A model generated the notes under the pieces. The model had not been told where the DNA came from. It did not search any database and saw only the letters and a program-made list of their open reading frames with translations. The position numbers and the translations under genes were made by a program. Below are positions 30,036-46,084 of a stretch of DNA of 64,000 bases, one piece after another. This DNA is from Candidatus Aminicenantes bacterium. Lineage in GTDB: Bacteria; Acidobacteriota; Aminicenantia; UBA2199. How positions within the stretch are numbered: the first letter of the stretch is position 1; each line of letters starts with the position of its first letter. The stretch covers positions 8,513 to 72,512 of the forward strand of contig JAOZUQ010000004.1 of assembly GCA_029938635.1 (NCBI GenBank). The letters are read 5' to 3'.

Positions 30036-32024
30036 TTGAGTGTAATTAAAAAATCTGTATATTCTAAAATAATAAAATCTTTACTGTTATCTTTATATAT
30101 ATTGTTCTTTCTTTTCTTAAACATCCCATCTATTACATTTTTTTTTAGAGATCCCGACCAGGGAGCTCAACTTGCAAAAGCGATGGAAATATTAAATGGA
30201 TTTCATCCTTTTATTCATATTAAAGGTAATATATATGGCCCTTTAGTATATTACTTCAGTGCATTGGGGCAATTTTTATCTGGAGGCAAGCTTATTGGAG
30301 AGGTTATTGTCATATTGGGCGGATATCTTACTGCATATCTAATCATATATTACCTTATTGAGAAGATAACCGGAAAAATTTTAATATCATTATTGTTACT
30401 TACTATAGCGTTAACGTTATTACCAAGGTTCTATAAGTATTATATAGTACTTGGGCCGGCTGTATTTTTGTTGGCATTATATTATTTTGTTAACAATGAT
30501 AATTCACAAAAGAAACTTTTTTTCCTGTCTGCTGGTACTGCTATAACGGCTTTGTTTCGTATTGATTTTGGTGTTTATTCTATAGTTGTCGCTCTTATTG
30601 CAATAGTAATTTACAAGGGGAGTGACCGATCAAATACATGGATTAAATGTATTGTTATTTATTTTGCATTTCTAATCATGATAGTTTTACCGTGGATTGT
30701 TTTGGTTATTATATTAAGTGGATCATTAAAACCTTTTCTGGAATTATTTCCGATAATTAAAAATATGGCAACGGATCTTTCTCTCCCTATCCCTGTTTTC
30801 ACCCAGCATCAAGTCTGGTTTTCAAAGTATAATAATTTTTCTCTACTTTTTTGGGCCTTCCGAATATTACCTTATTTTACTCTTATCATATTATATTTTA
30901 ACAAAGGAATTATAGAACAGAAGAAAAAGAATTTTATTATCTTAACTTCAATTTATACTGCTATAATATTTATCCAGGCACTTCACAGAACGAGTTTTAC
31001 TCACCTGCGTCATTGTATCCCGTTAACATTTATTCTTATTGGATGGTTGATCGGGAAGCTGATAAAAAATAAATCAGAATGGAAAAAGTTTTATGTTGTC
31101 CCAATAATAATGTATTTGATCATTCTTCTGTCAGGTTGGACTGTTTTTATGATTAATAACAGAGTGCTGAAAAGGTACAAAATTGCTTTGAATAAAGGGG
31201 TAACAAATTTTTCCTATATTTCTTATTCCAATGCTGATCTACGTATCAAGTTTAAGAAAAATATGTATATAAAAACAGCTGCCATAATAAATAAGTACTC
31301 AGATAAAAATGAACCGGTCATGTTCTTTCCGATTGAATCTCAATTATATTATTTCTCGGAAAGGATGTTTAAAAAATCAATGGGAATGCTGGGACCTGGC
31401 AGGCTAAATACCGAGGATCAGCAGGTTTTATTTTTTAAAGAACTTATAAATAGCGGCACAAATCTTATGGCAGACAGGCCTTTTTTTGCCTATGATAAAA
31501 TACCGGAAAGAAATCCAAGATTCTATTATCCTCATCTTATGAGATTAATATATGCTGAATATAAAATTGTTTGCAAATCTGGTGATTTTATAATTTTATG
31601 CAGGGATGATCGTTTTAATCAATATTTATCAAATAATAATCACTTCTCTAAATTTTCAGAAATCCAGAGTCCCGGGAAAGGATCAAATCGTGTTAATATC
31701 TCTTTTGATACTGTAAATACTTTCCCCTCTGAAGAAATATATCATCTGGCTCATAATGAAAGTATGCTTTATATTACAGGTAGTATTGAGTTAGAAAAAA
31801 AAGGTTTTAACAAAAAATCGTTTTTATTAGGGCTCCGGAAGGGTGAGAAATTATTTACATCCGGTGTAGCATTTACTGATAGAAGAGATCAATTAAATCT
31901 AAGATTCGAATTATTCTCATCACTTTTTTATGTTAATCCGGGAGAGTATGAATTAATAGCATTGGTCAAAGAAGGAGAGAAGTTTAGGATAATTGATTCA
32001 AATATAGTAATAGCTGTGATATAA
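30036..32024 (+). CDS. GT-C-like polytopic membrane protein with a C-terminal soluble domain. Paralog of 25396..27408.
   Basis: 662 aa. TTG start 6 nt after AGAGGT. Conserved loop FFFRDPDQGAQLAKAMEILNGFHPF. Same TM plus C-terminal-domain architecture as its paralog. Confidence 0.35.
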   Translation: MSVIKKSVYSKIIKSLLLSLYILFFLFLNIPSITFFFRDPDQGAQLAKAMEILNGFHPFIHIKGNIYGPLVYYFSALGQFLSGGKLIGEVIVILGGYLTAYLIIYYLIEKITGKILISLLLLTIALTLLPRFYKYYIVLGPAVFLLALYYFVNNDNSQKKLFFLSAGTAITALFRIDFGVYSIVVALIAIVIYKGSDRSNTWIKCIVIYFAFLIMIVLPWIVLVIILSGSLKPFLELFPIIKNMATDLSLPIPVFTQHQVWFSKYNNFSLLFWAFRILPYFTLIILYFNKGIIEQKKKNFIILTSIYTAIIFIQALHRTSFTHLRHCIPLTFILIGWLIGKLIKNKSEWKKFYVVPIIMYLIILLSGWTVFMINNRVLKRYKIALNKGVTNFSYISYSNADLRIKFKKNMYIKTAAIINKYSDKNEPVMFFPIESQLYYFSERMFKKSMGMLGPGRLNTEDQQVLFFKELINSGTNLMADRPFFAYDKIPERNPRFYYPHLMRLIYAEYKIVCKSGDFIILCRDDRFNQYLSNNNHFSKFSEIQSPGKGSNRVNISFDTVNTFPSEEIYHLAHNESMLYITGSIELEKKGFNKKSFLLGLRKGEKLFTSGVAFTDRRDQLNLRFELFSSLFYVNPGEYELIALVKEGEKFRIIDSNIVIAVI

Positions 32025-32053
32025 ATAGTAAATACTTCTATGGGGATAAAAAT

Positions 32054-32941
32054 ATGATAATTAAAAGAGCTCTTTTAAAATCATGGCGTGGTATTACTTT
32101 TATTCCTCATTGGATTCTGGATTCAGTCTTCCTTGGAATTGATAAAAAAAATATTATCTGGACAAGGAATATCAGGTTGATCCCCCGGAAGAAATTCAGG
32201 AAAGGGGCAAGGACCTCATATGCTGAGTATGGCCATGTGATCGGGATTTTTCAGACTTTGATAAAGCAGAACCTTAAAAGTGAAAACAATGTACGTATCC
32301 TCGATATCGGCTGTGGTACCGGCCTTATGGGTATGGCATCCGAGCCGATTTTATTTGAAGGCGGGCATTATACAGGTATTGATTTAATTGACAATAATGT
32401 TAAATACTGTAAAGCCCATTTTGATCCAAAGTATTTCAATTTTATTTTATCAGAAGCAACTAACTCCGCATATAATCCCGGTGGCATTGTAAAAAAAACA
32501 AAATGGGATCTGAAAGACAATACATTTGATTTGGTAACAGCTTTATCCGTTTGGACACATTTAGATGAAGATGATGCCGTATTTTATTTAAAAGAAGTGA
32601 AAAGGGTTCTGAAACCGGGAGGGAGGGCTATAATTACATTCTTCTTTTTAAATGAACTCTATAGAGCCGGCATTGATCAAAGAGTAAAGAGGGAAAGTTT
32701 TTTTCACATGACCTCTCCCGGTAAATGGGTTTTTGATAAACCGGTATATGATTCAAAGAACTGGTTTTGCCCTCAATGGGCGAGAGTTCCGGAAAGTGCT
32801 ATAGGGATTAATGAAAAAGGGATGGATAAGCTTTTAAAAGAATCAGGACTTGAAATTAACTCAATAATGGCTGGGAACTGGAAAGAAATACCGGGAGTCT
32901 ATTTTCAGGATATTATTATTTTTGAAAAACCAAAAAAATAA
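32054..32941 (+). CDS. Class I SAM-dependent methyltransferase.
   Basis: ILDIGCGTGLMG motif I, and a LKPGGRAIITFF post-motif II/III region. 295 aa. Confidence 0.65.
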   Translation: MIIKRALLKSWRGITFIPHWILDSVFLGIDKKNIIWTRNIRLIPRKKFRKGARTSYAEYGHVIGIFQTLIKQNLKSENNVRILDIGCGTGLMGMASEPILFEGGHYTGIDLIDNNVKYCKAHFDPKYFNFILSEATNSAYNPGGIVKKTKWDLKDNTFDLVTALSVWTHLDEDDAVFYLKEVKRVLKPGGRAIITFFFLNELYRAGIDQRVKRESFFHMTSPGKWVFDKPVYDSKNWFCPQWARVPESAIGINEKGMDKLLKESGLEINSIMAGNWKEIPGVYFQDIIIFEKPKK

Positions 32942-32964
32942 AATTAATAAATGGAAATTAGTTT

Positions 32965-34347
32965 TTGAAACATTTAAATTTGATCAACAATAGATTTATA
33001 AAAGATAAAAATCTACTTGAAGTATTGAAAGGCTCATCTGCAGCTTTCCTGCTAAGGGTTGCAGGAATGGTATCAAGTTATTCACTGATTTTCCTTATCT
33101 CTCATGTATACGGGGCTGATGTCCTCGGTATTTTTGCCCTGTGTCTCACTCTTCTTCAGGTGTTTACTGTTCTCGGAAAATTAGGGGTAGATACAGCGAT
33201 GATGAGGTTTGTCTCCGAATACTCAACCTCAGGTGAATTCATTTTTATCTCAAGGATGTCAAAACTTGCACTGAATATACTACTGCCATTGTCTTCTGTT
33301 ATATGCATTCTGGTATTTTTTTATTCACGTGAGATTGCAGAAGTTGTTTTCAAAAAAGGGTATCTTACTCCATATTTTAAGATTGCTGCACTTGGGATAG
33401 TACCGAATATATTTATAATGCTCAATTCTGAAAGGCTTAGAGGATTAAAGAAAATAAAAGAATACTCATTTCTTAGAAATGTAGCTATTCCCCTTTTTGC
33501 TTTTGGAATACTCGGAATTTCATCTGTATTTATTTCCCACAAAGTACTTCCGGTTTTAATTTATATGATAGTAGTGGTAATTACAGCAATTATCAGTTTT
33601 ATATTCTGGAGAAAGGCATTCACTGCTGAGAGTGGAAACTCAAATGTGTTGTCAATGAATCAAGGGAAATCAAGACCAGATTACAGAAAACTGCTTGGAT
33701 TGGCAATCCCCATGCTCTTCACCACTTCACTTCTGTTGATAATGGGATGGACAGACACGATAATGCTCGGTATCTTCAAAACCACCGCTGATGTAGGTAT
33801 TTACAGAGTTTCTCTTCGACTTGCTGCTATAATCTCTATTACTTTGATTGCTTTTAATGCAATTTTGGGTCCAAAAGTTACTGAATTATGGGAAAAGGGG
33901 AAAGTTAATGAATTAAAAAAAGTTGTCAGACAGGCAACAGCAATAGTTTTTGTGTCATCAATGATTGGATTTATTATTTTGGTAATTTTTCGACATTTGA
34001 TTCTGGGGATGTTTGGACCGGAGATTCGATCCGGATCCACTGCTTTTATTTTTTTGCTGCTTGGGCAGTTATTTAATTCAGCTGTAGGGTCTGTGGGACT
34101 GATATTGATGGTAACCGGCAAGCAAATTGTCATTCAAAACGTTATGATTGCTGGAACCATTATTAACATAACTCTAAATTTACTATTGATACCAAATTAT
34201 GGTATTAATGGTGCTGCTTTTGCGAGTATGACAAGTATGATATTTATTAATATTATTCCTTTCATCTATGTTAAGAAATTTATGGGTTTTTATACTCTAT
34301 CATTTAGTATGATGCGGGTCAGAAGGAGAGGTGTAAAAAAACAGTAA
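32965..34347 (+). CDS. Wzx-type oligosaccharide flippase (MOP superfamily polysaccharide biosynthesis protein).
   Basis: 460 aa, about 12-14 TM helices, Wzx-like length and hydropathy. Located in a GT/Wzy/WbaP context. TTG start. Confidence 0.55.
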   Translation: MKHLNLINNRFIKDKNLLEVLKGSSAAFLLRVAGMVSSYSLIFLISHVYGADVLGIFALCLTLLQVFTVLGKLGVDTAMMRFVSEYSTSGEFIFISRMSKLALNILLPLSSVICILVFFYSREIAEVVFKKGYLTPYFKIAALGIVPNIFIMLNSERLRGLKKIKEYSFLRNVAIPLFAFGILGISSVFISHKVLPVLIYMIVVVITAIISFIFWRKAFTAESGNSNVLSMNQGKSRPDYRKLLGLAIPMLFTTSLLLIMGWTDTIMLGIFKTTADVGIYRVSLRLAAIISITLIAFNAILGPKVTELWEKGKVNELKKVVRQATAIVFVSSMIGFIILVIFRHLILGMFGPEIRSGSTAFIFLLLGQLFNSAVGSVGLILMVTGKQIVIQNVMIAGTIINITLNLLLIPNYGINGAAFASMTSMIFINIIPFIYVKKFMGFYTLSFSMMRVRRRGVKKQ

Positions 34348-35684
34348 TGATACCTGTATTGATTTTTACAGTGGCAGTCATTTTTTTGTTATCATCAATT
34401 TTATTTCCGCGAAAGATATTTTTTTTGATGTTATTTTTTATTATCTTATGGCCGGATCTTATTTTTTATAAATATAATGACTTTCCAGGTATAACCCCTA
34501 CAAGAATAATGATTTTTGTTTTATCTGTTGCATTTATAATCAATGTATTACTGCTTAATGAAAAAACTATTGTTATTTGGGACCAGATAAAAAAGAACCG
34601 AAAAATAAAATATATATTGACTCTGATTATTATCTTCTTTTTTGTTCAGTTCTCTTCTTCGCTATTAATGTCTTCCAATATTTTTAAATCTCTTTATGCT
34701 TTCTTCAATAATTTTATATCCGGGTTTTTATTATTATTGTTTATTCTGTTTTTCTTTAATACAAGTAAGGATATTCGTAAAATTTTCAATTTCCTTTTTC
34801 TCTGTGCACTTGTTGTAAATTTAGTTGCATTATATGAATATATATCAGGAGATTCTGTTTTTTCAAATTTTCTTTTAACTCAAAATGAATTTAATGTAAA
34901 GGCAGTGTTAATTCAGTCTAGAAGTGGAATTCACAGGTTGAAGTCTGTTTTCTCAAATACATTAATTTATGCTCAATATATGGTCTCAATGATCCCCATT
35001 GCCATTTTTTTACTTAAGAATGAAAAGAAAAAATTTTTCAGATTTATTATAACTCTTTATTTATTATCAAATGTGTTTTTTGTTTTCCAAACAGATTCAA
35101 GAACGGGAATGGGTTTAATAGTTCTAATTCCTTTGGTTATACTAATATTCAAATTTTTCCAGAAAATTGAAAATATGTTTAAAAGGAATGTGATTTATTC
35201 TATTATTATCGGAGTGATTTTATTATCTGTTTTCTTAATTGCAGTTAATGCAGATTATGCTCTGGAATATAGTGAGCTGAATCCAATTTCCGAAAAAGAT
35301 AAAAGTACTATTCATAGAATCAGGCAGTTTGAACTTGCAATGAAACAAATTCCAGGCTCTCCTCTTATAGGGTATGGTGCAGGTGAAGGAGTGAATTGTG
35401 TAGCTCCGTATACGACCATAGATAGTTTTTACTTAAGTTTATTACTTGAGGTTGGAATTTTGGGGTTGTTGGTATTTGTTGTTTTTAATATTAAATTGTT
35501 AGACCTATTTCTTAGTGGATCAGGAGATATTCTATCAGAGAAATTTTATTTAGCAGTTTCTATAAGTATAATGTTAATGTTTTATTTTATATTATCACTT
35601 GATAAAATGAATTCGATATATTTTATTCTTATAGGTATGGGAATGTCAATGATTCTGAATACTGAGAAAGCAGAAACCCGATAA
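34347..35684 (+). CDS. Wzy / O-antigen-ligase-like (Wzy_C) polytopic membrane protein.
   Basis: 445 aa, more than 10 TM. Extracytoplasmic loop with QTDSRTGMG. 1-nt overlap with the wzx stop. Confidence 0.45.
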   Translation: MIPVLIFTVAVIFLLSSILFPRKIFFLMLFFIILWPDLIFYKYNDFPGITPTRIMIFVLSVAFIINVLLLNEKTIVIWDQIKKNRKIKYILTLIIIFFFVQFSSSLLMSSNIFKSLYAFFNNFISGFLLLLFILFFFNTSKDIRKIFNFLFLCALVVNLVALYEYISGDSVFSNFLLTQNEFNVKAVLIQSRSGIHRLKSVFSNTLIYAQYMVSMIPIAIFLLKNEKKKFFRFIITLYLLSNVFFVFQTDSRTGMGLIVLIPLVILIFKFFQKIENMFKRNVIYSIIIGVILLSVFLIAVNADYALEYSELNPISEKDKSTIHRIRQFELAMKQIPGSPLIGYGAGEGVNCVAPYTTIDSFYLSLLLEVGILGLLVFVVFNIKLLDLFLSGSGDILSEKFYLAVSISIMLMFYFILSLDKMNSIYFILIGMGMSMILNTEKAETR

Positions 35685-35797
35685 GTTTTTTTGGAGGCAA
35701 AGATAAAAGAAATAGGGAAGTTAAATAAGGAACTTAATTATTTGTTGAAATCCAGGATTCCGATTATATTCGCAAAATACAATATATATATATCAAA

Positions 35798-36769
35798 ATG
35801 GTTAATAATTTAGATAGTGCAGCCAGAGTGTTTATTGTTGTTCTCAATTTTAATAATTGGCGAGATACTGTAGAATGTCTTGACAGCCTTCTTGAGATAA
35901 CTTATAAAAATTATTCAATCGTTATTGTAGATAATGATTCAAATGATGGTTCTCCTGAAAAAATAGTTACTCACTGCAGGGGAATTAGCGAAGAGATTGA
36001 TATTTTGAATACTAATGAGCAGATTACTGCACATAAGAAAACTGTCAGAATAAAACTTTTACGGGCGGACAAGAATGGAGGATACGGATATGGGAATAAT
36101 CTCGGTATTAAATATGCACTTTCAGAAAGAGCTGATTATGTCCTTATTATCAATAATGATACAATAGTCGATCCTGATTTTTTGCAGCCCCTGGTTAATA
36201 CTTGTGAAGATGATAAAACGATGGGAATTGTTTCGGGGAAAATTTATTATTATGACAAACCGGATACAATATGGTCTAATGGAGGCCATTTTCATTCATG
36301 TACCGGGAAAGTAGAACAGTTTAATTTTAATGAGAAAGATAATGGCCTGATCCCCGAAGGGGAGATTAATTTTATCAGTGGGTGTATGTGGTTTATCCCT
36401 GTAGATGTGATACGGGAAGTCGGATATATTAACGAAGAGTATTTTATGTATATGGAAGATATTGATTATTGTCATAGAGTGCTTGAGAGAGATTATAAAC
36501 TTGCTGTTGTCCCGGAAAGCAGGATCTTCCATAAGGCAGGAGACAGGGATAAAAGTTTTTCAAAGTTCAGTGTTTACTGGAGAAGTAGAAATTACATGAT
36601 TTTATTAAAAAGAACAGAACCTTTTTTTTTCAATAGAATACTAAAGGCATTAGTATTTAATATTTTTTATTCGATAAGGTTGATAAAATATATGAAAATG
36701 AGCAGAATTCCGGATCAGTTAAGGGGGATGTTGAATGGGAGCTTACGTGGAAAACAAAAAACCACCTAA
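35798..36769 (+). CDS. Glycosyltransferase family 2.
   Basis: FIVVLNFNNWRDTVECLDSL…VIVDNDSNDGS is the GT2 N-terminal signature, with a DxD-type region downstream. 323 aa. Confidence 0.7.
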   Translation: MVNNLDSAARVFIVVLNFNNWRDTVECLDSLLEITYKNYSIVIVDNDSNDGSPEKIVTHCRGISEEIDILNTNEQITAHKKTVRIKLLRADKNGGYGYGNNLGIKYALSERADYVLIINNDTIVDPDFLQPLVNTCEDDKTMGIVSGKIYYYDKPDTIWSNGGHFHSCTGKVEQFNFNEKDNGLIPEGEINFISGCMWFIPVDVIREVGYINEEYFMYMEDIDYCHRVLERDYKLAVVPESRIFHKAGDRDKSFSKFSVYWRSRNYMILLKRTEPFFFNRILKALVFNIFYSIRLIKYMKMSRIPDQLRGMLNGSLRGKQKTT

Positions 36770-37661
36770 TCTACTGATTATAGGTGTTCATAAAGCGGGG
36801 ACCACCTCTGTTTTTGAATATCTGTCTGCTCATCCTGAAGTTTGCGGAAGCAGGAAAAAGGAACTCCATTATTATACTCCTTTAAGATTCAACAGGCCTT
36901 TGACAGATTTTGATGATTACCTGAGTAAATTCTCACATTGCCGTAAAGTAAAATATCGCCTTGAGGCCAGCCCCTCCTATCTTTATGGAAAGGGAAAGAT
37001 AGGGGGGAGGATCAGAAATGATCTTGGAAATGTCAAACTGATCCTGATCCTGAGAGATCCGGTTTCAAGGTTTATTTCATTTTATAAATCTCTAAAAACC
37101 ACTCTACGTCTTGATGTAAAGACAGAATTTGATAATTTCCTTGAAGATTCGGTTAAGGCATCATCAGGTGAGGAGTCGGAAGATGTTTATTTCAGGGGTT
37201 TCCAGGAGGGTTTATATTCAGAATATATTAAGGACTGGATTAAAATGTTTGATAGAAACTCATTAAAAATTGTTTTTTTTGAACATCTGAAAGATGATCC
37301 TTCCCGTTTCATGATCGAACTTGCTGACTGGCTTTCAATTGACGGAACTTTATATAAAGATACCGGGTTATTTAAGATCTCAAACAGAACCAGAATGCCT
37401 TCAAGTATAATGGTTCATAAATTTGCCATGTTAATGAATAAAAGGTTTGAATTTTTCTTCAGGTCACAGAAAAGATTAAAACAATCACTGAGAGAATTTT
37501 ATTTTAAGATTAACAGGGAAGAAGATATGGAAATAATTTCTGAAGCTTCTGTTAAAAGAGTGAAAGATCTGTATATCGGAGAAACAATAAAATTAAAACA
37601 GATTTTAGATAACCTGGGGATTGATTATATTCCATTATGGTTGGATAATATTAATAATTAA
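36735..37661 (+). CDS. Sulfotransferase (heparan-sulfate-sulfotransferase-like fold).
   Basis: LLIIGVHKAGTTSVFEYL is the 5'-PSB. LILILRDPVSRFISFYK is the 3'-PB. 308 aa. Overlaps the GT2 gene by 35 nt. Confidence 0.7.
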   Translation: MGAYVENKKPPNLLIIGVHKAGTTSVFEYLSAHPEVCGSRKKELHYYTPLRFNRPLTDFDDYLSKFSHCRKVKYRLEASPSYLYGKGKIGGRIRNDLGNVKLILILRDPVSRFISFYKSLKTTLRLDVKTEFDNFLEDSVKASSGEESEDVYFRGFQEGLYSEYIKDWIKMFDRNSLKIVFFEHLKDDPSRFMIELADWLSIDGTLYKDTGLFKISNRTRMPSSIMVHKFAMLMNKRFEFFFRSQKRLKQSLREFYFKINREEDMEIISEASVKRVKDLYIGETIKLKQILDNLGIDYIPLWLDNINN

Positions 37662-37706
37662 TAACAATCTATTATCAAATTATTTAGGTTTGTGAGGGGG
37701 GGATAA

Positions 37707-38573
37707 TTGCTTCCTGATTTTTTTATTGTTGGTGCTCCAAAATGCGGTACAACAACACTATATCATTTTCTGGCTTCCCATCCGGAAGTATCAATGTCGG
37801 TTCCGAAGGAGTTGAATTTTTTCTCCGGAAAAGAGATTCTTGATCAGAGACTATATTATAAAACATTTCTGGTAAAAAATCTGAATGAATATAAAAATCA
37901 CTTTAAAAAAATCAAAAACGAAAAAATTACCGGGGAGTCCAGCGTATCCTATCTTTATTACAAGGAAGTTCCCGGCAAGATTCATAAACTTATCCCTGAA
38001 GCAAAGATAATTATAATGCTTCGGGATCCGGTGCAAAGAGCGGTATCGCATTATATGATGGACAGAAGGCTTGGATACGTAAATATTCCGTTTGAAGATA
38101 TTGTTTTCAAAAATAATAATTCTGAAAAACTGGAATTATATTATCAGCAGTATATAAAGTTGGGAATGTATTATAATCCGGTTAAAAGGTATATGGATGT
38201 TTTTGGTGAAGATCAGGTATGGATAGGTTTTACAGATGATCTGAATAATAATCCGGAGACAGTATTGGGGGACCTGATTGATTTTCTGGGAGTGAGCAGA
38301 AACAATTCTAAAAATATTTCTGAAAAGCGCAATGTAAATAAAATCCCCAAATTAGATCTGATTGCAAATTTATATAAGTCCGGGAAGTTAAGGAAAACTC
38401 TAAACCTGATATTGCCTGATAAAATAAAAAAAAATATAAAAAAGATACTATTCAAATCGAGTGTGAAACAAGTTGTTGATAAGGATCTGGAGATGCATTT
38501 AAGAAAATTGTACTCTGAAGATATATTAAAACTCAGGAAACTGGTTAATAAAGATTTGGGAGAATGGGTGTAG
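37707..38573 (+). CDS. Sulfotransferase.
   Basis: FFIVGAPKCGTTTLYHFL is the 5'-PSB. IIMLRDPVQRAVSHY is the 3'-PB. TTG start after a G-rich RBS. 288 aa. Confidence 0.7.
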   Translation: MLPDFFIVGAPKCGTTTLYHFLASHPEVSMSVPKELNFFSGKEILDQRLYYKTFLVKNLNEYKNHFKKIKNEKITGESSVSYLYYKEVPGKIHKLIPEAKIIIMLRDPVQRAVSHYMMDRRLGYVNIPFEDIVFKNNNSEKLELYYQQYIKLGMYYNPVKRYMDVFGEDQVWIGFTDDLNNNPETVLGDLIDFLGVSRNNSKNISEKRNVNKIPKLDLIANLYKSGKLRKTLNLILPDKIKKNIKKILFKSSVKQVVDKDLEMHLRKLYSEDILKLRKLVNKDLGEWV

Positions 38574-38577
38574 TAAG

Positions 38578-39729
38578 TTGAACCAATCTGAAAAAATTAA
38601 GATTGCCATTATTGATCCTGTGGGAATTAAAGCGGGAATGAATTATTATGATAGTTCATTGATGAATTCTCTGGCAAAAAAGGGTTTAGGTACTTATATT
38701 TTCAGTAATTATCAGGGGACTGCCGGAGAACCTACTAAATATTTCAGTTTTTTTAAAAATCATATAAACAATTTTTTGTTGAAAAAGATTGTTTTGATGC
38801 TCAAGGGGATATTATTGTCGGTATTAAAATGCAGGAAAGAAAAAATTAATTTTATTATTATTCATATTTTCTCTTCCGGATATTTAAATTTATTTATGAT
38901 TTTGTCTATTAAAATATTTGGTTTGAAAACAATTGTCATTTCTCATGATGTGTCCAGTTTTGTTGAAAATGATCTGAAATTTGTTCAGAACATAATATAT
39001 AATAGAATTTCCGATTATATTATTGTTCATAACAGGTTTTCATTAAAAGAATTAATAAAAAATATAAAAATTGATGATCAAAATAAAATAAATATAATCA
39101 GACATGGAGCATATTCAGAATTTATAGATAAAAATATTAAAAAGAATTCTGCAAGAAAAATGCTTAGGCTTGATCCGGGAGGAAAGTATCTGCTTTTTTT
39201 TGGGCAGATTAAAAAAGTTAAAGGATTGGAAATTTTGCTTAGTGCAATGCCTTCCATCAGAAATAATATTAAACTTATAATTTGTGGAAAGCCATGGAAG
39301 GATGATTTTTTCATTTATGATCAGATCATTGAAGAATATAAAATCCAGAGCAGAGTTATAAAATTTGTCAGATATATTGAAGATCATGAAAGAGAACTAA
39401 TCTTTAAAGCTTCAGATGCTATTATAATACCATATAAGAGAATATATCAAAGTGGTGTTTTACTTATGGGGATGAGTTACGGGTTACCTGTGATTGCTTC
39501 TGATCTGGAACCGATAAAAGAGATTATTCAAGACCAGAATAATGGTATTCTATTTAAAACAGGAAATGCCGGGGATTTGGCAGAGAAAGTTAATTTACTG
39601 TTTCAAAACAATAAACTTAGAAAAACAATAAGTGAAAAATCACTTGAAACAATAAGATCAGATTTTTCATGGGAAGGGATAGCTGATAATTACATAAAAA
39701 TGATAAATTGGAATCAAGGTGAAACTTAA
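38578..39729 (+). CDS. Glycosyltransferase family 4 (GT-B, Glycos_transf_1).
   Basis: 383 aa. C-terminal half has the typical GT4 E-x7-E-like region (…GLPVIASDLEPIKEII…). TTG start. Confidence 0.6.
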   Translation: MNQSEKIKIAIIDPVGIKAGMNYYDSSLMNSLAKKGLGTYIFSNYQGTAGEPTKYFSFFKNHINNFLLKKIVLMLKGILLSVLKCRKEKINFIIIHIFSSGYLNLFMILSIKIFGLKTIVISHDVSSFVENDLKFVQNIIYNRISDYIIVHNRFSLKELIKNIKIDDQNKINIIRHGAYSEFIDKNIKKNSARKMLRLDPGGKYLLFFGQIKKVKGLEILLSAMPSIRNNIKLIICGKPWKDDFFIYDQIIEEYKIQSRVIKFVRYIEDHERELIFKASDAIIIPYKRIYQSGVLLMGMSYGLPVIASDLEPIKEIIQDQNNGILFKTGNAGDLAEKVNLLFQNNKLRKTISEKSLETIRSDFSWEGIADNYIKMINWNQGET

Positions 39730-40818
39730 TTGAAAATTGCAATTCTTGGGTCAAGGGGAATTCCTAACAACTATGGTGGTTTTGAAGAGTGTGCAGCCAG
39801 GTTATCTGTTAATCTGGTGAGGGGTGGGCACGATGTAACGGTCTATAACCCCGACACTCACCCCTATGAAGGTAATGAGTGGAAAGGAGTTAAGATAAAA
39901 AAAATATTTTTCAAGGAAAATATTTTCAGGTTTTTTGCTGTTTTTATTTTTGACTTCTTATCATTAAAAGATGCAGTGAAAGATCAGAATGATATAATTC
40001 TGGAGTTGGGATATTCTCCTGCTTCACTTTTTTACAAGTTTGTTCGAAGGGGAAGATCAAAGATAGTTACGAATATGGATGGCCTTGAGTGGAAGAGGGA
40101 TAAGTGGGGTTATCTGACCAGAAAACTTCTAAAACATTGTGAAAAAAATGCAGTAAGGCGAAGTGATGCACTTATATCAGACAATATTGGAATTCAAGAT
40201 CACTTATATAGTGAATACAATGTAAATAGTTGCTTTATTCCTTATGGAGCTGAGAAATTGACCTCACCTGGTGATCCGATACCTGGAAATTTAAACTTGA
40301 AAAAAGGTGAATACTTTCTCTCCGTTGCAAGACTTGAGCCGGAAAATAATATTGAAATGATTTTAGACGGGTATAAACGCTCTGAATCAAATTATCCATT
40401 TGTTGTAGTAGGGCCGTTAAATACAAGTTATGCCGGATTCCTGATGAAAAAATACAGGAATGAAAAAAAAATAAAGTTTATGAATGGGATCTATGATAAA
40501 AGAGTCCTGGATAATCTAAGGTGTCATTGCAGATTATACTTTCATGGCCATTCTGTAGGAGGGACAAATCCTTCACTGCTTGAAGTGATGTCTTGCGGAA
40601 CTCCAATTGCTGCTCATGACAATATATTTAACAGAAGTGTATTGGGTGATGCTGCCTATTTTTTTAAATCTTCAGAAGACGTATCATTGAACATTATAAA
40701 TAAGGACGTTGAAGTTTGTAACAAATTCTCAGATATGAATATTAAAAAGGTCAAAAATGTGTATAATTGGTCAAAAATAACTGACTCCTATTTAAAATTA
40801 TTCCTTGAAATTACTTAA
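39730..40818 (+). CDS. Glycosyltransferase, GT4-like.
   Basis: 362 aa. MKIAILGSRGIPNNYGGFEE N-terminus, and a C-terminal GTNPSLLEVMSCGTPIAAHD nucleotide-sugar-binding block. Confidence 0.6.
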   Translation: MKIAILGSRGIPNNYGGFEECAARLSVNLVRGGHDVTVYNPDTHPYEGNEWKGVKIKKIFFKENIFRFFAVFIFDFLSLKDAVKDQNDIILELGYSPASLFYKFVRRGRSKIVTNMDGLEWKRDKWGYLTRKLLKHCEKNAVRRSDALISDNIGIQDHLYSEYNVNSCFIPYGAEKLTSPGDPIPGNLNLKKGEYFLSVARLEPENNIEMILDGYKRSESNYPFVVVGPLNTSYAGFLMKKYRNEKKIKFMNGIYDKRVLDNLRCHCRLYFHGHSVGGTNPSLLEVMSCGTPIAAHDNIFNRSVLGDAAYFFKSSEDVSLNIINKDVEVCNKFSDMNIKKVKNVYNWSKITDSYLKLFLEIT

Positions 40819-41002
40819 AAAGGGAAATAATAGCTAATATTTTGATATAATCAGATTAAGGACTTTTAATATTCAGAGTTGTAAATCGAATAATACTGAA
40901 AAACCCTGATTTGTAGAATTAAAAAGTATAAATGCACGCAATTGAGCAGGAGGATATTTTTTCTTAGAGGGGAATCCGGGAAAAAAATATGGTCAAAGTA
41001 AG

Positions 41003-41518
41003 ATGATTAAGCGAGTACTATCCACTTCATTTCATTCGATAATTTCAAGATTTTTTATAACGGCTACAAATCTTTTTTTAGTTTTCTTTATTTCAAAAAA
41101 TCTGGGAAAGGTCCAATTAGGTACCTATGGAATTGTTTTCTTCTTCTTCATGTTCTTTGCATTAATATTTTCAGTTTCTCTCTTATTAAGCAGGAATCTG
41201 ATTGTTGCAGCATTCTCCCCCGAATTTCTCCATGATACCGGCAAATATCTTTTCTATTTTTCATTTATTTTAATTTTCAGATTCTTTTCATTCTCTACAG
41301 GTATTATTCTTACTTCTGCAGATGCTCAGAAGACCAGGTTTAATATAATGTTCACTGCTTCAATAATAATGATTGCTCTTGACATAATTCTCGGATCTCA
41401 ACTTCAAGTGACAGGTATGATTATTTCAAGGGCAGTTACAGAAATATTTATATTTTTTATTTTTGGGTACTATGTAAACAGGATCATTTCCAGATACGAT
41501 GTAATTAGACATACATGA
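41003..41518 (+). CDS. Small polytopic membrane protein, possibly a remnant of a flippase-like gene.
   Basis: 171 aa, 4-5 TM, no recognisable motif. Flanked by 184-bp and 144-bp non-coding gaps, unlike the tightly packed neighbours. Confidence 0.25.
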   Translation: MIKRVLSTSFHSIISRFFITATNLFLVFFISKNLGKVQLGTYGIVFFFFMFFALIFSVSLLLSRNLIVAAFSPEFLHDTGKYLFYFSFILIFRFFSFSTGIILTSADAQKTRFNIMFTASIIMIALDIILGSQLQVTGMIISRAVTEIFIFFIFGYYVNRIISRYDVIRHT

Positions 41519-41662
41519 AAATCCTGATTGTACATATTTCTGCTGTATCTCCCCAATGCTTAGAAAGAAAATGGAAAAAAGGTTATAATATAAACGTAAT
41601 GGAAAAGAAGTGTTCAATCATAAGATTTTAAAAAAGATAGATTCGGTGTAAAATAGGAAGAA

Positions 41663-42727
41663 ATGAAAATATTAATTACAGGGACAGCCGGATTCATAGG
41701 GTATCATCTTGTAAAGAAGCTTGCCGGAAAGGATCTGGAAATAGTTGGAATAGACAATATTAATGATTATTATGACGTCAATCTGAAATATGCCCGGTTG
41801 AAAGAGACAGGGATACTTAAAGAAAGGATCGAAGATGGCAAAGTTGTAAAGAGTGAGATATTTCCGGATTATTCTTTTATAAAGATGGACTTAAAAGATA
41901 GTGCCGGAGTCAATGATATTTTTAAAAAAAATAAATTTGACATGGTTTGTCACCTTGCTGCACAGGCAGGTGTAAGATATTCGATTGAGAATCCAAAAGC
42001 ATACATTGAGAGTAATCTTAACGCCTTTGCAAATATTCTTGAAGGAGTACGGAATTTTAAGACAGGGCACCTTGTCTATGCCAGCAGCTCTTCGGTTTAC
42101 GGTTTGAATGAAGCCATGCCGTTCTCGACCCATCACAATGTCGATCATCCGGTAAGTTTGTATGCCGCGACCAAGAAAGGAAATGAGCTTCTTGCACACA
42201 GTTATAGTTATCTCTATGGGATACCGGTTACTGGCCTCCGGTTCTTCACTGTTTACGGGCCATGGGGGCGGCCTGACATGGCTTTGTTTAAATTTGTCAG
42301 GAATATTCTTGAGGGGAATCCGATCGAAGTTTACAATTTCGGGAAAATGGAGAGGGATTTCACATACATAGATGATATTGTACTCGGTATCGAAAAAGTT
42401 TTATCCATACCTCCGAAAGGGAATCCAAACTGGAACGGAATGCAGCCTGATCCTTCATCCAGCACATCTCCCTACAAAATTTATAATATCGGAAATGGCA
42501 AACCGGTAAAACTGATGGATTTTATCAGTGTAATGGAAAAAACACTTGGAATAGAAGGGGAAAAAAAATTGATGCCCATCCAACCTGGAGATGTTAAGAA
42601 AACCTGGGCAGATACGGCAGATCTCGAGAGAGATACAGGATATAAACCTTCCACCCCTGTTGAGATTGGAGTCAGGAATTTTATAGATTGGTATCGGGAT
42701 TTTTATAATTTCAGAAATGATGGCTGA
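41663..42727 (+). CDS. NAD-dependent nucleotide-sugar epimerase (SDR), most similar in pattern to UDP-glucuronate 4-epimerases.
   Basis: MKILITGTAGFIGYHL Rossmann motif. YASSSSVYG and YAATKKGNE (catalytic YxxxK). TVYGPWGRPDMA block characteristic of the Cap1J/WbpP-like UDP-GlcA/GalNAcA epimerase group. Confidence 0.7.
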   Translation: MKILITGTAGFIGYHLVKKLAGKDLEIVGIDNINDYYDVNLKYARLKETGILKERIEDGKVVKSEIFPDYSFIKMDLKDSAGVNDIFKKNKFDMVCHLAAQAGVRYSIENPKAYIESNLNAFANILEGVRNFKTGHLVYASSSSVYGLNEAMPFSTHHNVDHPVSLYAATKKGNELLAHSYSYLYGIPVTGLRFFTVYGPWGRPDMALFKFVRNILEGNPIEVYNFGKMERDFTYIDDIVLGIEKVLSIPPKGNPNWNGMQPDPSSSTSPYKIYNIGNGKPVKLMDFISVMEKTLGIEGEKKLMPIQPGDVKKTWADTADLERDTGYKPSTPVEIGVRNFIDWYRDFYNFRNDG

Positions 42728-42753
42728 TCAAATAGTGAACAGGTAACAATTAA

Positions 42754-44172
42754 ATGAATGGAATAAGACGTTCATTCTTCTATATTTTCCTGTTTTTTGA
42801 TGCGCTAATCCTTATAGTCACTTTTTCAATTGCAGATATTATTTCAAGAAGCAGACTAAATGAAAAAATTCTGAATGAGATCGGGAACCCGGGCCTCTCC
42901 GAAATATTTACAATTCTTATATTTATTATTATCTGGTTCTTTTCAGCGAGGATAACTTCACTCTATGATGAATTGAAAAATTTCAACTTCGGGTCAGAAT
43001 TTTTTACTCTTCTACAGAATATATCAATTCAATTAATTGCCGGAGTGGCTGTTTTTTTCTCTTTGAAAGATATGCTGTTGTCCAGATATTTCCTGATGGC
43101 CTATTTGATCCTGGTATTTTCAGGGACACTTTTTCTAAGAGTTGTGTACAGATATGTAAAGAGATTGTTGATAAGACAGGGGAAATTAAGGAAAAATGTT
43201 CTATTAGTAGGTGATAGTGATTTCGGGAATAATTTGTTTGGTACACCGGAACGGTCAGCAACAATGGGCTATAACATAACCGGATATATTGCTGACAGCC
43301 CTGACACTGATAACCCCGGATATCTTGGGACTTTTTCCGATATTGGCAAAGTGATTACTGAGTACAATGTTGATGAAGTATTGATCACTTTAAGTACAAA
43401 AGACTCAGAAAAGCTCGATAGTATTATTGCAACTCTCTCGGCATTCCCTGTCCGTGCAAGGGTAATACCTGAATATTTTAAATTTATTTCAAATAAATAT
43501 CAGATCTCATTTTTCAATAATGTCCCCGTAATAGATATAAGGAATGATCCGCTTGATGAACTCCATTGGCGCCTGATAAAGCGGGGATTTGATGTTTTCT
43601 TTTCAATTATGTTCATTCTGTTGATTTACTCATGGCTCGGCCTTCTGATATCAATTGGTGTTAAAATAAGTTCTAAAGGCCCTGTTTATTTCAAGCAGGA
43701 GAGGTGGGGGCGAAAGAACAAACGGTTTACTTTATTTAAATTCAGGTCAATGGTAAAAGACAGCAGCGATCTGGATGGTGAAGGAAAGTTTGTACAGGCG
43801 ACCAAAGAAGATGCTCGTATTACTCCATTCGGGAAGTTTCTAAGGAAGACAAGCCTTGATGAACTGCCGCAGTTTTTTAATGTACTTTTTGGAGACATGT
43901 CCGTGATAGGGCCAAGGCCTCATGCTGTCCCCATGAATATTGAATCGAAGGATAAGATAGAGAACTATATGCTGAGGCACCTTGTTAAGCCCGGGATAAC
44001 CGGGTGGGCCCAGGTGAACGGATACAGGGGTGCAACTTTAAATAAAAAAAGGCTTGAGCGGAGGATTGAATTTGATATGTTCTATATTGAGAACTGGTCC
44101 TTCTGGTTTGATTTGCGGATCATCTTCCTTACAGTCTGGCAGGGTGTGAGGGGAGATCCGAATGCATATTAA
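42754..44172 (+). CDS. Undecaprenyl-phosphate sugar-1-phosphate transferase (WbaP/PglB-like initiating 'bacterial sugar transferase').
   Basis: 472 aa. N-terminal TM segments, then KRGFDVFFS…GPVYFKQERWG…FTLFKFRSM…DELPQFFNVLFGDMSVIGPRPH blocks of the Bac_transf domain. Confidence 0.75.
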   Translation: MNGIRRSFFYIFLFFDALILIVTFSIADIISRSRLNEKILNEIGNPGLSEIFTILIFIIIWFFSARITSLYDELKNFNFGSEFFTLLQNISIQLIAGVAVFFSLKDMLLSRYFLMAYLILVFSGTLFLRVVYRYVKRLLIRQGKLRKNVLLVGDSDFGNNLFGTPERSATMGYNITGYIADSPDTDNPGYLGTFSDIGKVITEYNVDEVLITLSTKDSEKLDSIIATLSAFPVRARVIPEYFKFISNKYQISFFNNVPVIDIRNDPLDELHWRLIKRGFDVFFSIMFILLIYSWLGLLISIGVKISSKGPVYFKQERWGRKNKRFTLFKFRSMVKDSSDLDGEGKFVQATKEDARITPFGKFLRKTSLDELPQFFNVLFGDMSVIGPRPHAVPMNIESKDKIENYMLRHLVKPGITGWAQVNGYRGATLNKKRLERRIEFDMFYIENWSFWFDLRIIFLTVWQGVRGDPNAY

Positions 44173-46084
44173 CAAAACTGATCTGATATATTATATTTTT
44201 GCGTCACTGGCCTTAGTACTATCATTTTATATTATTGTATTTCACATAGGTTTTATATTTCTTCCTGTTACTTTCCTGATTGCAGGAGCTGCAATATCAT
44301 TACTTCCGGGTGGGAACGGGTTGAAAGTTTTCTTTTTTCTACTCCCTCTGATCAATTCTCTTCCTGCACTATTTTTTAACGGTTATCCATTCAATCTGAT
44401 GGCGATCGTTTTATTCTTTCTGGCGGGTGTGGTCGCAGGATCATTACTGAAGGGTGTTAATCCCGGTTTTAAAGATTTCAACTGGGCATCTTCTTACCTT
44501 ATATTCCTATCGATCTTATGGATATCATTTGTTTTTGTTTTATTAAGGTGGTCGAATATTTTTATGCCTTCCGGAGCATTTTTAGCCGATACACCTGTCG
44601 GCCCGGGAGTTCCTCAGAGCCCCAGGGTCTCTTTTGCTGTTATTTTCCCGGTCATTACAATATTTCTTTTTTCTTTGACCCCTTTTACTGCAGCTTTGAT
44701 CAGAAAATATTCCTTGAAAAAAGAACAGATATTCAGACTGATCATCTTCGGGTATTCCTTTTCTTTTCTCATTGCTTTGTATCAGAAATTAATTGATAAA
44801 GGGTTCCTGTCCCTTGTATGGTGGGGGGAAAAATTGAATCGGTACAATGGGGGATTCTCAGATTTTAACGGGTTCGGGTTCTTCGGAGGAGTCCTGTTTC
44901 TATACTCCTCTCTGGCATTAATGAACTCTCCTGATGATGGAGCAGGGAAATGGTTTGGCAGAAACCGTACTTTTTTGATTTTTGCTGCTCATATTTCTTT
45001 CTTCGGAATAGTTTTATCCGGAAGCCGCACTGCGTTTATTTTTGTGATCTTTGCATTTATATATTTGATGTTCAGTAGAGTAAAGAACACCATAAAGATT
45101 ATAATTCCTTCATTGTTTATCGTTATACTGCTTTTTTCCGGAGGAGAACTAGTAAAAAGACTGGAAAAAGCATTTGATTCTCCCAGTATTGGTAAAGGGA
45201 ATACGCGTTTTATAAAAGTCATTGATGGTTTTTCAAACGGAAGAGTCCGGATGGTTGAAACCTCCATACAGATAGTTAAAAAATACCCGGTTTCGGGTAT
45301 TGGAGCAGGCAATTTCATTTTTCATCTGAAATTTCTGAAACATGGAGAAAAATTTCTTGAAGACCTTCCACTTAACCAATACCTCCTTTTCCTGGACGAA
45401 ATTGGAGTTATCGGCCTTTTATCTTTCCTGCTTTTTATTTTTATTATAATAAGGGGGAGATATAAGGATATGTATTTCAAGATGCTTATGGTTGTTTTAC
45501 TTGTTATGCTTGTCGGTAATTCTTTATGGCTGCCTGAAATATTTATCCTGTTCTGGATACTTGTTATATCTGTAACGGGGCCTCCAGAACTTAAACAATT
45601 TGATATAAAGAAGTTTAAACCTGTTATATATTTATTGTTAATAATTTTTGTTCTATCAAATATCGTTTCTTTTAATTCTCTTCACCCGTCAAAACTAATG
45701 TCAATTCGGGGACTCCCGTATGACTTTGGTTTCTGGACGGAATCTGCTAATTCAGGATTCCGCTGGACAAAGACTAATGCAGGGGTGTTATTGGAGATAG
45801 ATGAGAGCGGAGTTTGCGGCCCTATAAAATTTTTCTGTGGAGCTCCTCTTGGTAATATTCCAGGAAAAATTCAAATTTTAAAGATATTTAAAAATGGTAA
45901 GCCTGCAGGTACAAAGAGTTTTAATTCAAATGAAGAACACCTGTTTTATATTAAAGGTGAACCAGGAGAAAAGTTCTTTCTCGGAGTTGAAGTTGATCCT
46001 GCTTTTAATTTGAAAAAAATGGGTATTAGCCCGGAATCGAGAGATCTTGGCGTTCAGTTCTTTCCTGTTGCTGATGAGCTGTGA
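44162..46084 (+). CDS. O-antigen-ligase-family (Wzy_C) membrane protein with a ~190-aa C-terminal extracytoplasmic domain. Candidate polymerase or O-oligosaccharyltransferase.
   Basis: 640 aa, about 12 TM. SGSRTAFIFVIF loop block typical of the Wzy_C/WaaL family. Hydrophilic C-terminal ~190 aa. Confidence 0.45.
   Translation: MHINKTDLIYYIFASLALVLSFYIIVFHIGFIFLPVTFLIAGAAISLLPGGNGLKVFFFLLPLINSLPALFFNGYPFNLMAIVLFFLAGVVAGSLLKGVNPGFKDFNWASSYLIFLSILWISFVFVLLRWSNIFMPSGAFLADTPVGPGVPQSPRVSFAVIFPVITIFLFSLTPFTAALIRKYSLKKEQIFRLIIFGYSFSFLIALYQKLIDKGFLSLVWWGEKLNRYNGGFSDFNGFGFFGGVLFLYSSLALMNSPDDGAGKWFGRNRTFLIFAAHISFFGIVLSGSRTAFIFVIFAFIYLMFSRVKNTIKIIIPSLFIVILLFSGGELVKRLEKAFDSPSIGKGNTRFIKVIDGFSNGRVRMVETSIQIVKKYPVSGIGAGNFIFHLKFLKHGEKFLEDLPLNQYLLFLDEIGVIGLLSFLLFIFIIIRGRYKDMYFKMLMVVLLVMLVGNSLWLPEIFILFWILVISVTGPPELKQFDIKKFKPVIYLLLIIFVLSNIVSFNSLHPSKLMSIRGLPYDFGFWTESANSGFRWTKTNAGVLLEIDESGVCGPIKFFCGAPLGNIPGKIQILKIFKNGKPAGTKSFNSNEEHLFYIKGEPGEKFFLGVEVDPAFNLKKMGISPESRDLGVQFFPVADEL

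Follow-up and report, generated by a model that had tools for sequence, protein, structure and literature searches.

The window analysed here is a stretch of 64,000 nucleotides from a Candidatus Aminicenantes bacterium, in which a variable glycan cassette is followed by a conserved block of genes and, on the opposite strand near the window end, by a pair of overlapping genes. Four proteins of the Wzy_C superfamily, named A to D, are distributed over these parts. The relevant features are:

21789..41518, + strand: variable low-GC glycan cassette (Pfam, GC content and comparison with a relative)
32965..34347, + strand: Wzx-type flippase (Polysacc_synt/MatE; Pfam)
34347..35684, + strand: protein A, 445 aa, putative repeat-unit polymerase (Wzy)
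35061-35480, + strand: Wzy_C domain of A (Pfam)
41003..41518, + strand: Wzx flippase remnant at the junction of cassette and conserved block (similarity to the Wzx of relative L013)
41663..42727, + strand: NAD-dependent sugar epimerase/dehydratase, first gene of the conserved block (Pfam)
42754..44172, + strand: WcaJ-type initiating phosphoglycosyl transferase (PGT), of the Und-P glucose-1-P transferase type (TIGR03023, Pfam)
44162..46084, + strand: protein B, 640 aa, WaaL-fold membrane enzyme
44984-45430, + strand: Wzy_C domain of B (Pfam)
45605..45670, + strand: extra (13th) TM helix of B (AF2 model)
45674..46081, + strand: C-terminal β-sandwich of B, residues ~505-640, CBM35/CBM6-like
59052..59936, - strand: EamA-family transporter, downstream of the hydrolase (Pfam)
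59936..61210, - strand: GH39/GH5-like glycoside hydrolase, downstream of C and in the same orientation (Pfam)
61242..63083, - strand: protein C, 613 aa, WaaL-fold with ligase-type His and TPR domain
62145-62558, ~61857-61955 and ~61305-61844, - strand: Wzy_C domain, extra TM helix and TPR domain of C
63080..64000, - strand: protein D, last 306 residues of a Wzy_C protein of ~487 aa that ends in a short TPR-like tail (Wzy_C, orthologue)

Wzy_C proteins and their catalytic residues

All four ORFs match PF04932 (Wzy_C) above its gathering score of 31.7 bits (A, 43.9; B, 52.2; C, 62.4; the D fragment at 63080-63985, 36.4; a full-length D orthologue, 52.6), which bears out an earlier sequence-only reading of this DNA that several Wzy_C proteins are encoded in the window. 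No further Wzy_C protein was detected by Pfam among the other scanned ORFs. The WaaL/SEDS-like polytopic fold of the Wzy_C (GT-C_B) superfamily was recovered, and since pairwise BLASTP identities reach at most 28% over short segments only, the four proteins are not recent duplicates and are, as judged by sequence, anciently diverged members of the WaaL/Wzy superfamily. D had previously been taken for a separate TM+TPR protein at 63080..63985. Its frame, however, stays open to base 64000 without a stop upstream of the ATG at 63985, and the Wzy_C profile is matched in its C-terminal half only (positions 75-148). A full-length Wzy_C+TPR protein of 487 aa in a syntenic relative aligns with the fragment through residues 183-487, at 82% identity. 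D is therefore a fourth Wzy_C protein, cut by the window edge. A literature search found no biochemical or genetic data on these proteins or on Aminicenantes.

O-ligases share two Und-PP-binding arginines, R191 and R265, and an acceptor-activating histidine, H313 (numbered as in 7TPG); where ligases have this His, which is essential in WaaL, PglL and TfpM (PMC9829042), an Asp or Glu is found in inverting polymerases and SEDS proteins (PMC10920833). Both Arg have counterparts in A (R252 and R324) and B (R289 and R361). At the His position, A carries the polymerase-type Asp (D359, in a register anchored on a Glu+9/Gly+11 motif) and B carries Leu (L404, with D401 upstream), its family having L/A/G/S at this position and D/E/H at position -3. 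C and D present His instead. In C, an invariant Lys (K189) replaces the first Arg and is joined by R245 and H295, and D has Phe, Arg and His-Asn, which are invariant (F158, R214 and H257-N258, L009 numbering) in 20 aligned D sequences; the His is residue 75 of the window fragment, and the Phe position lies upstream of the fragment. The search for WaaL- and PglL-type Arg and His residues that the sequence-only reading had proposed was therefore successful for the His in C and D and negative in A (Asp) and B (Leu). The four copies sort into three classes: A, B, and D together with C.

Variable cassette, conserved block and protein B

The cassette comprises sulfotransferase-like genes, methyltransferases, a gene for an LPG_synthase_TM protein, two Pfam-less polytopic paralogues, a sulfatase-family gene, Wzx, Wzy (A), a GT2 gene and two GT1/GT4 genes including a DUF1972 glycosyltransferase (GT), together with the flippase remnant. 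Its genes have a GC content of 27-36% (27.1% for that of A) versus 37-40% in the flanking genes, and the cassette shares no homology with the corresponding region of a close relative, in which AspRS and HisRS are 90% identical to those here. The Wzx stop codon overlaps the start codon of A (TAATGA), A weakly matches TIGR04370 ('oligosaccharide repeat unit polymerase'), and tblastn detected no A homologue in 44 related B-family loci. Of the four proteins, only A is encoded within, and varies together with, the GT/Wzx cassette. A is thus best described as a putative ordinary, cassette-specific repeat-unit polymerase. The cassette would build a heteroglycan on a lipid carrier, probably sulfated and methylated and primed by the conserved WcaJ-type transferase 3' of the cassette, and A would polymerise its repeat units. 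Wza, Wzc and Wzz were not found in the window.

The block that follows behaves differently from the cassette. In a close relative with housekeeping genes 90% identical, all genes upstream of the block are replaced, whereas orthologues of the epimerase (88%, in L013), the PGT (67%) and B (80%) are retained; B is cassette-independent, as it is orthologous while the genes upstream have been exchanged. The PGT scores 449 bits against TIGR03023 (cut-off 410.75), contains Bac_transf and CoA_binding_3 domains, and overlaps the start of B by 11 bases. It lies directly upstream of B homologues in 25/38 loci, often preceded by a DUF1972 GT, and the epimerase is found upstream of the PGT in closer relatives too. 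The cassettes of other B-family loci have a Wzx or MurJ of their own, frequently together with a further polytopic protein or Wzy_C. As a separate observation, the locus presents a case of glycan-cassette replacement, with epimerase, PGT and B as the conserved flank and a flippase remnant left at the junction; this remnant consists of two fragments, 67-75% identical to the 410-aa Wzx of L013, and has no Pfam match.

The C-terminal part of B sets it apart from a plain Wzy_C protein. In the AF2 model, an additional helix (residues 482-503) comes after the three post-loop helices, and the soluble domain behind it measures ~130 aa rather than the ~190 aa first estimated from the sequence. Helix counting against the 12-TM architecture of WaaL (PMC10920833) would place this domain, like the other accessory domains, on the periplasmic side. 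The β-sandwich has no Pfam family, appears CBM-like and is a putative sugar-binding module. Wzy_C proteins carry this domain repeatedly as an appendage, and in its distant carriers the canonical [DE]-x-x-H-N ligase motif is intact. The conservation of B, its pairing with the PGT gene and the lineage of its accessory domain point to B as a putative ligase-lineage final transferase. Working coupled to the WcaJ-type initiating enzyme, B would most likely accept the completed Und-PP-glycan irrespective of its distal structure and pass it on to a conserved, probably carbohydrate-containing acceptor. Its catalytic base has probably moved three residues upstream, to D401.

Proteins D and C and the upstream pilins

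The D stop codon overlaps the C start codon (ATGA), and D and C are, going by this overlap, translationally coupled; D is directly upstream of C in 25/25 related loci. An HH alignment of D and C gives 98% probability over 318 columns, with homology running through the first TPRs. The TPR domain of C forms a superhelical array of helix-turn-helix repeats. Pfam detected neither PglL_A (PF15864) nor Wzy_C_2 (PF11846) in B or C (E <= 0.01) or in full-length D (E <= 1). D could be catalytically impaired, since it carries an invariant Phe where WaaL has the Und-PP-binding R191. The GH39/GH5-like hydrolase and the EamA transporter next to C occur there in close relatives only.

In each of the 20 related loci with at least ~2 kb of upstream sequence, the fully syntenic L009 among them, D is immediately preceded by GspG-like pilin genes, and these pilin-linked D/C loci span 37-88% identity. 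In the genome studied here, the pilin genes would lie beyond the window end, judging from L009, which is syntenic and 81-88% identical. The encoded pilins carry N_methyl and T2SSG domains (Pfam), and a C-terminal ...SNG.F.YGP[KR]V[KQR] is common to the 30 distinct pilins associated with D and C. This C-terminus (...YGPKVK) lacks the Ser/Thr acceptor of the TfpO/TfpM type; a Ser ~12 residues from the end is conserved (97%) and might, speculatively, be an internal glycosylation site. No GT or Wzx neighbours of C/D were found in the related loci. A pilin gene directly upstream is the classic context of pilin O-oligosaccharyltransferases (O-OTases) (PMC9829042, PMC3643930, PMC12645811), and an O-OTase adjoined pilin genes in 21/31 cases (PMC3643930). 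Owing to their position directly behind pilin genes in relatives, D and C probably attach sugars to pilins and are candidate pilin O-OTases outside the definitions of TfpO, TfpM and PglL. On this reading, pilin(s), D and C would form a conserved operon; the two enzymes would modify the GspG-like pilins of the adjoining upstream genes and perhaps further proteins, and their TPR domains would bind either the protein substrate or one another.

Weighing the alternatives and relation to known systems

From the folds, motifs, gene order and its conservation, and the cassette replacement, we infer activities, donors, acceptors and topology, and on balance we lean towards reading the set as a repeat-unit polymerase (A), a ligase-lineage final transferase (B) and candidate pilin O-OTases (D and C). 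All three jobs would use Und-PP-linked glycans at the periplasmic face. The sequence-only reading had expected one polymerase beside ligase or O-OTase candidates; this holds in that A alone is polymerase-like and that C and D combine the ligase His with a place behind pilin genes, and only in part for B, which is not a cassette-specific polymerase but has no ligase His. Another role deserves consideration for B, namely that of polymerising a conserved backbone, such as a disaccharide assembled by the WcaJ-type PGT and the DUF1972 GT, with the CBM-like domain holding the growing chain and the variable cassette making side chains or a second polymer. Two Arg, no His and a nearby acidic residue are closer to the polymerase/SEDS pattern (PMC10920833), the PGT and the DUF1972 GT are the most conserved neighbours of B, several loci have no separate Wzy_C within 10 kb, and no chain-length regulator was found in the window. 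We nevertheless consider this fairly unlikely: position 0 is Leu, neither Asp nor Glu, the other carriers of the β-domain are His-type and ligase-like, a separate Wzx and Wzy_C are present in the same cluster in the window and in L001/L034, and the module has no conserved flippase companion. In addition, conservation of 36-40% across the class would be atypical for polymerases, which diverge with their repeat unit (PMC10920833). That all four proteins are polymerases for different polysaccharides, the outcome named in the sequence-only reading as its refutation, is highly improbable and fares worse than the ligase/O-OTase idea. All are indeed Wzy_C proteins, Wzy polymerases are extremely diverse and the window is rich in glycan genes; yet only A belongs to and co-varies with a GT/Wzx cassette, B stays orthologous when that cassette is replaced, and C and D, with their ligase His, have neither GTs nor flippases beside them and keep their place behind pilin genes.

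The role of D and C can also be seen differently. One or both might be LPS O-antigen ligases (WaaL) or act on a non-pilin acceptor, the pilin position reflecting co-regulation or an unrelated envelope role. WaaL is the closest solved structure to C, sequence similarity alone cannot separate WaaL from O-OTases (PMC3643930), and both the missing PglL_A and Wzy_C_2 domains and the pilin C-termini would fit such a role. This is unlikely given that pilin linkage persists in every one of the 20 loci across the whole identity range, that the TPR tails, whose fold is confirmed, are protein-interaction modules, that translational coupling of two paralogues is foreign to WaaL, and that no LPS-core genes were seen adjoining any of the four proteins, either among the window genes or in the related C/D loci. 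It also seems doubtful that D is a non-catalytic or regulatory partner of C, with C as the sole active subunit of a heteromeric transferase. The ATGA overlap with strict co-occurrence, the Phe at the R191 position and the homology to C through the first TPRs are compatible with such a pseudo-enzyme, but D is invariant at R214, H257, N258 and numerous further periplasmic positions, a pattern expected of an active enzyme, and other invariant Arg (R201, R223) could stand in for R191. Beyond the preferred three-class reading, a bolder version would make these proteins two uncharacterised enzyme types, a His-less branch of O-antigen ligases (B) and a two-subunit O-OTase (D and C), which we regard as a long shot. 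B would then be a 'glycan-to-glycan' ligase moving the sulfated, Wzx/Wzy-made polysaccharide to another envelope polymer, not to lipid A or protein, with the CBM-like domain selecting the carbohydrate acceptor, and D with C a TPR-armed enzyme using an internal pilin site and glycans with glucose at the reducing end. If so, the pair would be a fifth class of bacterial O-OTase.

To our knowledge, four classes of O-OTases are recognised (TfpO, TfpM, PglL and PglS), all from Proteobacteria, and we know of no protein glycosylation system in Acidobacteriota. The glycoengineering of bioconjugate vaccines relies on these enzymes. Of the four classes, PglS and TfpM alone accept glycans with a reducing-end glucose (PMC12645811, PMC9829042), and the pilin-D-C operon, which adjoins a glycan pathway primed by a WcaJ-type (glucose-1-phosphate-type) PGT, offers new O-OTase candidates from an uncultured phylum. 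The B family is a natural experiment on the catalytic His of the WaaL fold and, with the wider β-domain relatives, reveals a recurrent accessory module of ligase-type enzymes, and the bracketed cassette replacement helps to annotate 'serotype' loci in metagenome-assembled genomes. These findings extend known principles to new variants and do not overturn current understanding.

Among known systems, the Wzy polymerases (inverting BP-Pol, clan GT-C1) resemble A, which is likewise next to Wzx, cassette-specific and equipped with Arg and an Asp at the His position; B, C and D differ by not co-varying with a repeat-unit cassette and by Leu (B) or His (C/D). TfpO/PilO (Pseudomonas aeruginosa, Acinetobacter) and TfpM (Moraxellaceae) are Wzy_C proteins with an essential His whose genes directly follow that of the pilin they modify (PMC9829042, PMC3735195) and which, like D and C, lack PglL_A and Wzy_C_2 (PMC12645811). 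In contrast to these, two coupled enzymes are found here instead of one, both with TPR tails and a replaced first Und-PP Arg, in the phylum Acidobacteriota, and the associated GspG-like pilins have 0-1 Cys and end in Lys, not Ser/Thr. PglL (Neisseria, Burkholderia, Acinetobacter) and PglS (A. baylyi) share with C and D the Wzy_C core, the essential His and a frequent location next to pilin genes, and they glycosylate internal Ser/Thr; a C-terminal TPR motif has been reported for PglL and WsfB (PMC2943079). PglL_A and Wzy_C_2 were not detected in C, D or B, so that sequence kinship is limited to the Wzy_C core. Compared with WaaL (CAZy GT121; Cupriavidus metallidurans 7TPG/7TPJ; E. coli WaaL), B has Leu at the His position, C Lys and D Phe at R191, and none of the four lies in an LPS-core locus; WaaL lacks the extra TM helix and periplasmic C-terminal domain that B (β-sandwich) and C (TPR) are predicted to have. 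A precedent for a ligase core with an appended domain is WadA, a GT121 fused to GT25 in Brucella and Mesorhizobium (PMC10920833), in which the extra domain is a cytoplasmic-type GT25 glycosyltransferase, whereas B and C carry a putatively periplasmic β-sandwich and TPR domain.

Wzy_C proteins and surrounding genes

Mapping of the window from an ORF listing together with Pfam and NCBIfam scans gave the following features.

About 21.8 to 46.1 kb, + strand: glycan locus
34347-35684: Wzy_C protein A
41003-41518, + strand: 171-aa ORF, Wzx flippase remnant, with two fragments 67-75% identical to the 410-aa Wzx at 3093-4325 of L013, a close relative with a swapped cassette
44162-46084: Wzy_C protein B
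Downstream of the glycan locus, - strand: housekeeping genes AspRS, HisRS, a sulfatase, HIT, S1 and LytB
+ strand: PBP1C gene
Right edge, - strand: operon of Wzy_C proteins D (63080 to beyond 64000) and C (61242-63083), a GH39-like hydrolase and an EamA transporter

The four ORFs named in an earlier sequence-only reading all exceed the gathering score of Pfam Wzy_C. The last had been taken for a separate TM and TPR protein ending at 63985; instead, the reading frame stays open as far as base 64000, and of the Wzy_C profile only the half towards the C-terminus is matched. A syntenic relative has a 487-aa Wzy_C protein whose residues 183-487 show 82% identity to this ORF. Pairwise identity among A, B, C and D reaches at most about 28%, over short segments only, and judged by their sequences the four are ancient paralogues and not recent copies. 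The name 'IctB-family bicarbonate transporter' for A and D was rejected as a legacy annotation of Wzy_C proteins (weak TIGR00947 matches of 17-28 bits, the cut-off being 366), and so was the IctB label that P0256, a protein sharing the C-terminal domain of B, carries as its JGI name.

The start of A overlaps the stop codon of the Wzx flippase gene. Its GC content is 27.1%, with 27-36% in cassette genes and 37-40% in flanking genes, and it weakly matches TIGR04370, 'oligosaccharide repeat unit polymerase'. No tblastn match to A was obtained in the 44 loci with B homologues. Since WaaL was not among the PDB matches of A or of full-length D when each was searched as a single sequence, the motif registers of both rest on MAFFT or HH alignments and on a Glu+9/Gly+11 anchor, counted from the His position (H313 of the WaaL structure 7TPG) and common to all sequences aligned. 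For A, the alignment with WaaL of E. coli and C. metallidurans, checked by this anchor, gives R252, R324 and D359 as key residues. A is accordingly placed, as a prediction, among ordinary cassette-specific Wzy proteins.

Wza, Wzc and Wzz (export, chain length) were not found among the scanned window ORFs. Sulfur-ester genes are unusually dense (8640-14027, 22998-23717, 28383-29972, 36735-38573 and 49295-50878), with three of sulfotransferase-like type in the cassette, four of the sulfatase family and one for an FGE-sulfatase maturase; this density suggests both sulfation of the cassette glycan and breakdown of sulfated glycans. Two paralogues (25396-27408 and 30036-32024, + strand; 43% identity), with ~10 TM helices, a ~290-aa soluble C-terminal region and no Pfam or NCBIfam match, adjoin an LPG_synthase_TM protein (24430-25374) and may be GT-C-like periplasmic glycan-modifying enzymes. 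At 3365-8618 (+ strand), an 835-aa PMT_2 (GT-C) protein, a polysaccharide deacetylase and a carbamoyltransferase form a small glycan-modification group unrelated to the Wzy_C finding. Directly upstream of the glycan cassette, four tandem genes with Kre9_KNH/GEVED Ig-like repeats (14232-21689, + strand; 1077, 466, 400 and 376 aa) could encode surface (glyco)proteins, a weak association; B homologues in loci L025, L034/L001, L040 and L053 have similar genes close by. As glycoprotein acceptors of B these neighbours were set aside, the link being too weak at 4/44 loci besides the window.

Protein B and its conserved gene block

B and the gene before it, for a WcaJ-type initiating phosphoglycosyl transferase (PGT), overlap by 11 bases; the PGT scores 449 bits with TIGR03023, above the cut-off. 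The PGT-B pairing recurs in distant homologues, and 25 of the 38 genome loci that extend far enough upstream have it; a DUF1972 glycosyltransferase often lies upstream of the PGT. Between the window and L013, AspRS and HisRS are 90% identical and the orthologous epimerase, PGT and B 88%, 67% and 80%, while all genes further upstream differ. The ORF at 41003-41518 has no Pfam match, and the intact 410-aa Wzx occupies the equivalent position in L013; read from its fragments, this remnant marks where recombination joined the variable cassette to the conserved epimerase-PGT-B block. Other cassettes carry their own Wzx or MurJ and often also a second Wzy_C protein or a Pfam-less polytopic protein.

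Within these variable cassettes upstream of B homologues, a polytopic family of ~560-620 aa without a Pfam match and with 25-38% mutual identity is recurrent (L016 590-2284, L017 4970-6661, L024 2140-4011, L035 1741-3426, L042 41-1162); its members may be Pfam-less polymerases. One Acidobacteriota MAG (JBDLJQ01; L015 and L018) encodes two B paralogues, which have 62% and 48% identity to the window B, each with epimerase and PGT upstream (adjacent in L015, with a ~870-nt gap before B in L018), so the module can be duplicated within one genome. The titles 'uncultured Clostridia bacterium' and 'Eubacteriales' stand on many public MAG records in which B-family and PGT genes are clear (binchicken assemblies; L016, L019, L023, L035, L038, L040, L046, L047 and others); these titles look placeholder or mis-assigned, because the gene content matches Aminicenantes loci.

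B ends in a CBM-like β-sandwich, here termed the β-domain. A word-index search with this domain alone gave one fragment, and its relatives were therefore taken from an exhaustive profile search, which returned 282 representative proteins; those scanned or aligned are mostly Wzy_C proteins. On these matches, the β-domain is a recurrent domain without a Pfam family. In distant Wzy_C proteins, 700-1100 aa long, the domain is doubled in tandem at the C-terminus and the canonical [DE]-x-x-H-N ligase motif is retained (P0256, P0260, P0269, P0280-P0284, P0299 and others); some also contain Fib_succ_major or FG-GAP domains. In B, R289 and R361 are both present and an invariant Leu404 stands at the His position; its family has L, A, G or S there, D, E or H at -3 and often H or E at -4. 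The catalytic base of B is probably shifted.

The D-C pair and its pilin genes

D lies directly upstream of C in all 25 loci with upstream sequence; an ATGA overlap joins the two genes, and by hhalign (98% probability) their homology takes in the first TPRs. Pilin genes occur upstream of D in 20/20 loci with at least ~2 kb of upstream sequence. In the relatives examined, one to three genes of 145-155 aa with a G|FTLIELLIV prepilin motif and T2SSG similarity directly precede D, and in five loci a further pilin gene directly follows C. The fully syntenic relative L009 (C 86%, D 82% identical) has three pilin genes at the point where the window ends; the third is longer (204 aa), with a disordered tail that is acidic and then Lys/Pro-rich. 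In the GspG-like pilins upstream of D (L004-L009, L059-L082), the C-terminus is strongly conserved as DI.[FY]SNG.F.YGP[KR]VK, cysteines number 0-1, and a Ser some 12 residues before the end is conserved as well.

HMM alignment of C with 7TPG places the invariant K189 at R191, R245 at R265 and H295 at H313 (numbered from Met1; alignment A2 omits Met1 and numbers one lower). In the alignment of D (n=20), R191 corresponds to an invariant Phe, R265 to an invariant Arg and H313 to an invariant His-Asn.

Functional assignment and comparison with known enzymes

Ligases present two Und-PP-binding Arg and an acceptor-activating His, whose position is held by Asp or Glu in inverting polymerases and SEDS proteins (PMC10920833). 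Of these residues, the His is found in C and D but not in B (Leu) or A (Asp), and both Arg are found in A and B. That all four proteins are repeat-unit polymerases would suit A and is disfavoured overall: C and D have the ligase His, and because cassettes swap around a conserved B, B appears independent of repeat-unit structure, which argues against it as a repeat-unit polymerase. A conserved-backbone polymerase is a serious rival for B, whose own His position holds Leu; the distant carriers, by keeping [DE]-x-x-H-N, mark the β-domain as an accessory module of ligase-type enzymes, and the motif pattern of the two groups makes B a likely His-less offshoot of them. On our reading, B belongs to the ligase lineage and carries out the final transfer of Und-PP-glycans that its partner PGT has started; its acceptor may be a carbohydrate.

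Direct linkage to pilin genes is a recognised signature of pilin O-oligosaccharyltransferases (O-OTases) (PMC3643930, PMC9829042, PMC12645811, PMC3735195), in which the His is essential (PMC9829042). For C and D, the gene context gives good support to the proposal that the decorated Wzy_C copies are ligase or O-OTase candidates; for B this proposal is plausible but atypical.

The four proteins are best described, by inferred function, as one routine Wzy, one conserved ligase-lineage family and one pilin-linked TPR pair. Literature searches on Aminicenantes glycans or pilins and on Wzy_C proteins with CBM-like domains yielded nothing relevant. The B family would represent an uncharacterised conserved ligase lineage, its catalytic residue displaced and a CBM-like domain added, and D-C a conserved pair of ligase-type enzymes that bear TPRs and are linked to pilin genes, in a phylum in which protein glycosylation is not known to have been studied. 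Harding et al. reportedly described in 2015 two Acinetobacter O-OTases in a pilA-tfpO-pglL tandem, which carries no weight in the assignments made here. Unlike the known O-OTase classes, C and D lack the PglL_A and Wzy_C_2 domains (Pfam), form two coupled enzymes with TPR tails and have the first Arg replaced, and the pilins are GspG-like, ending in ...YGPKVK and not in Ser/Thr.
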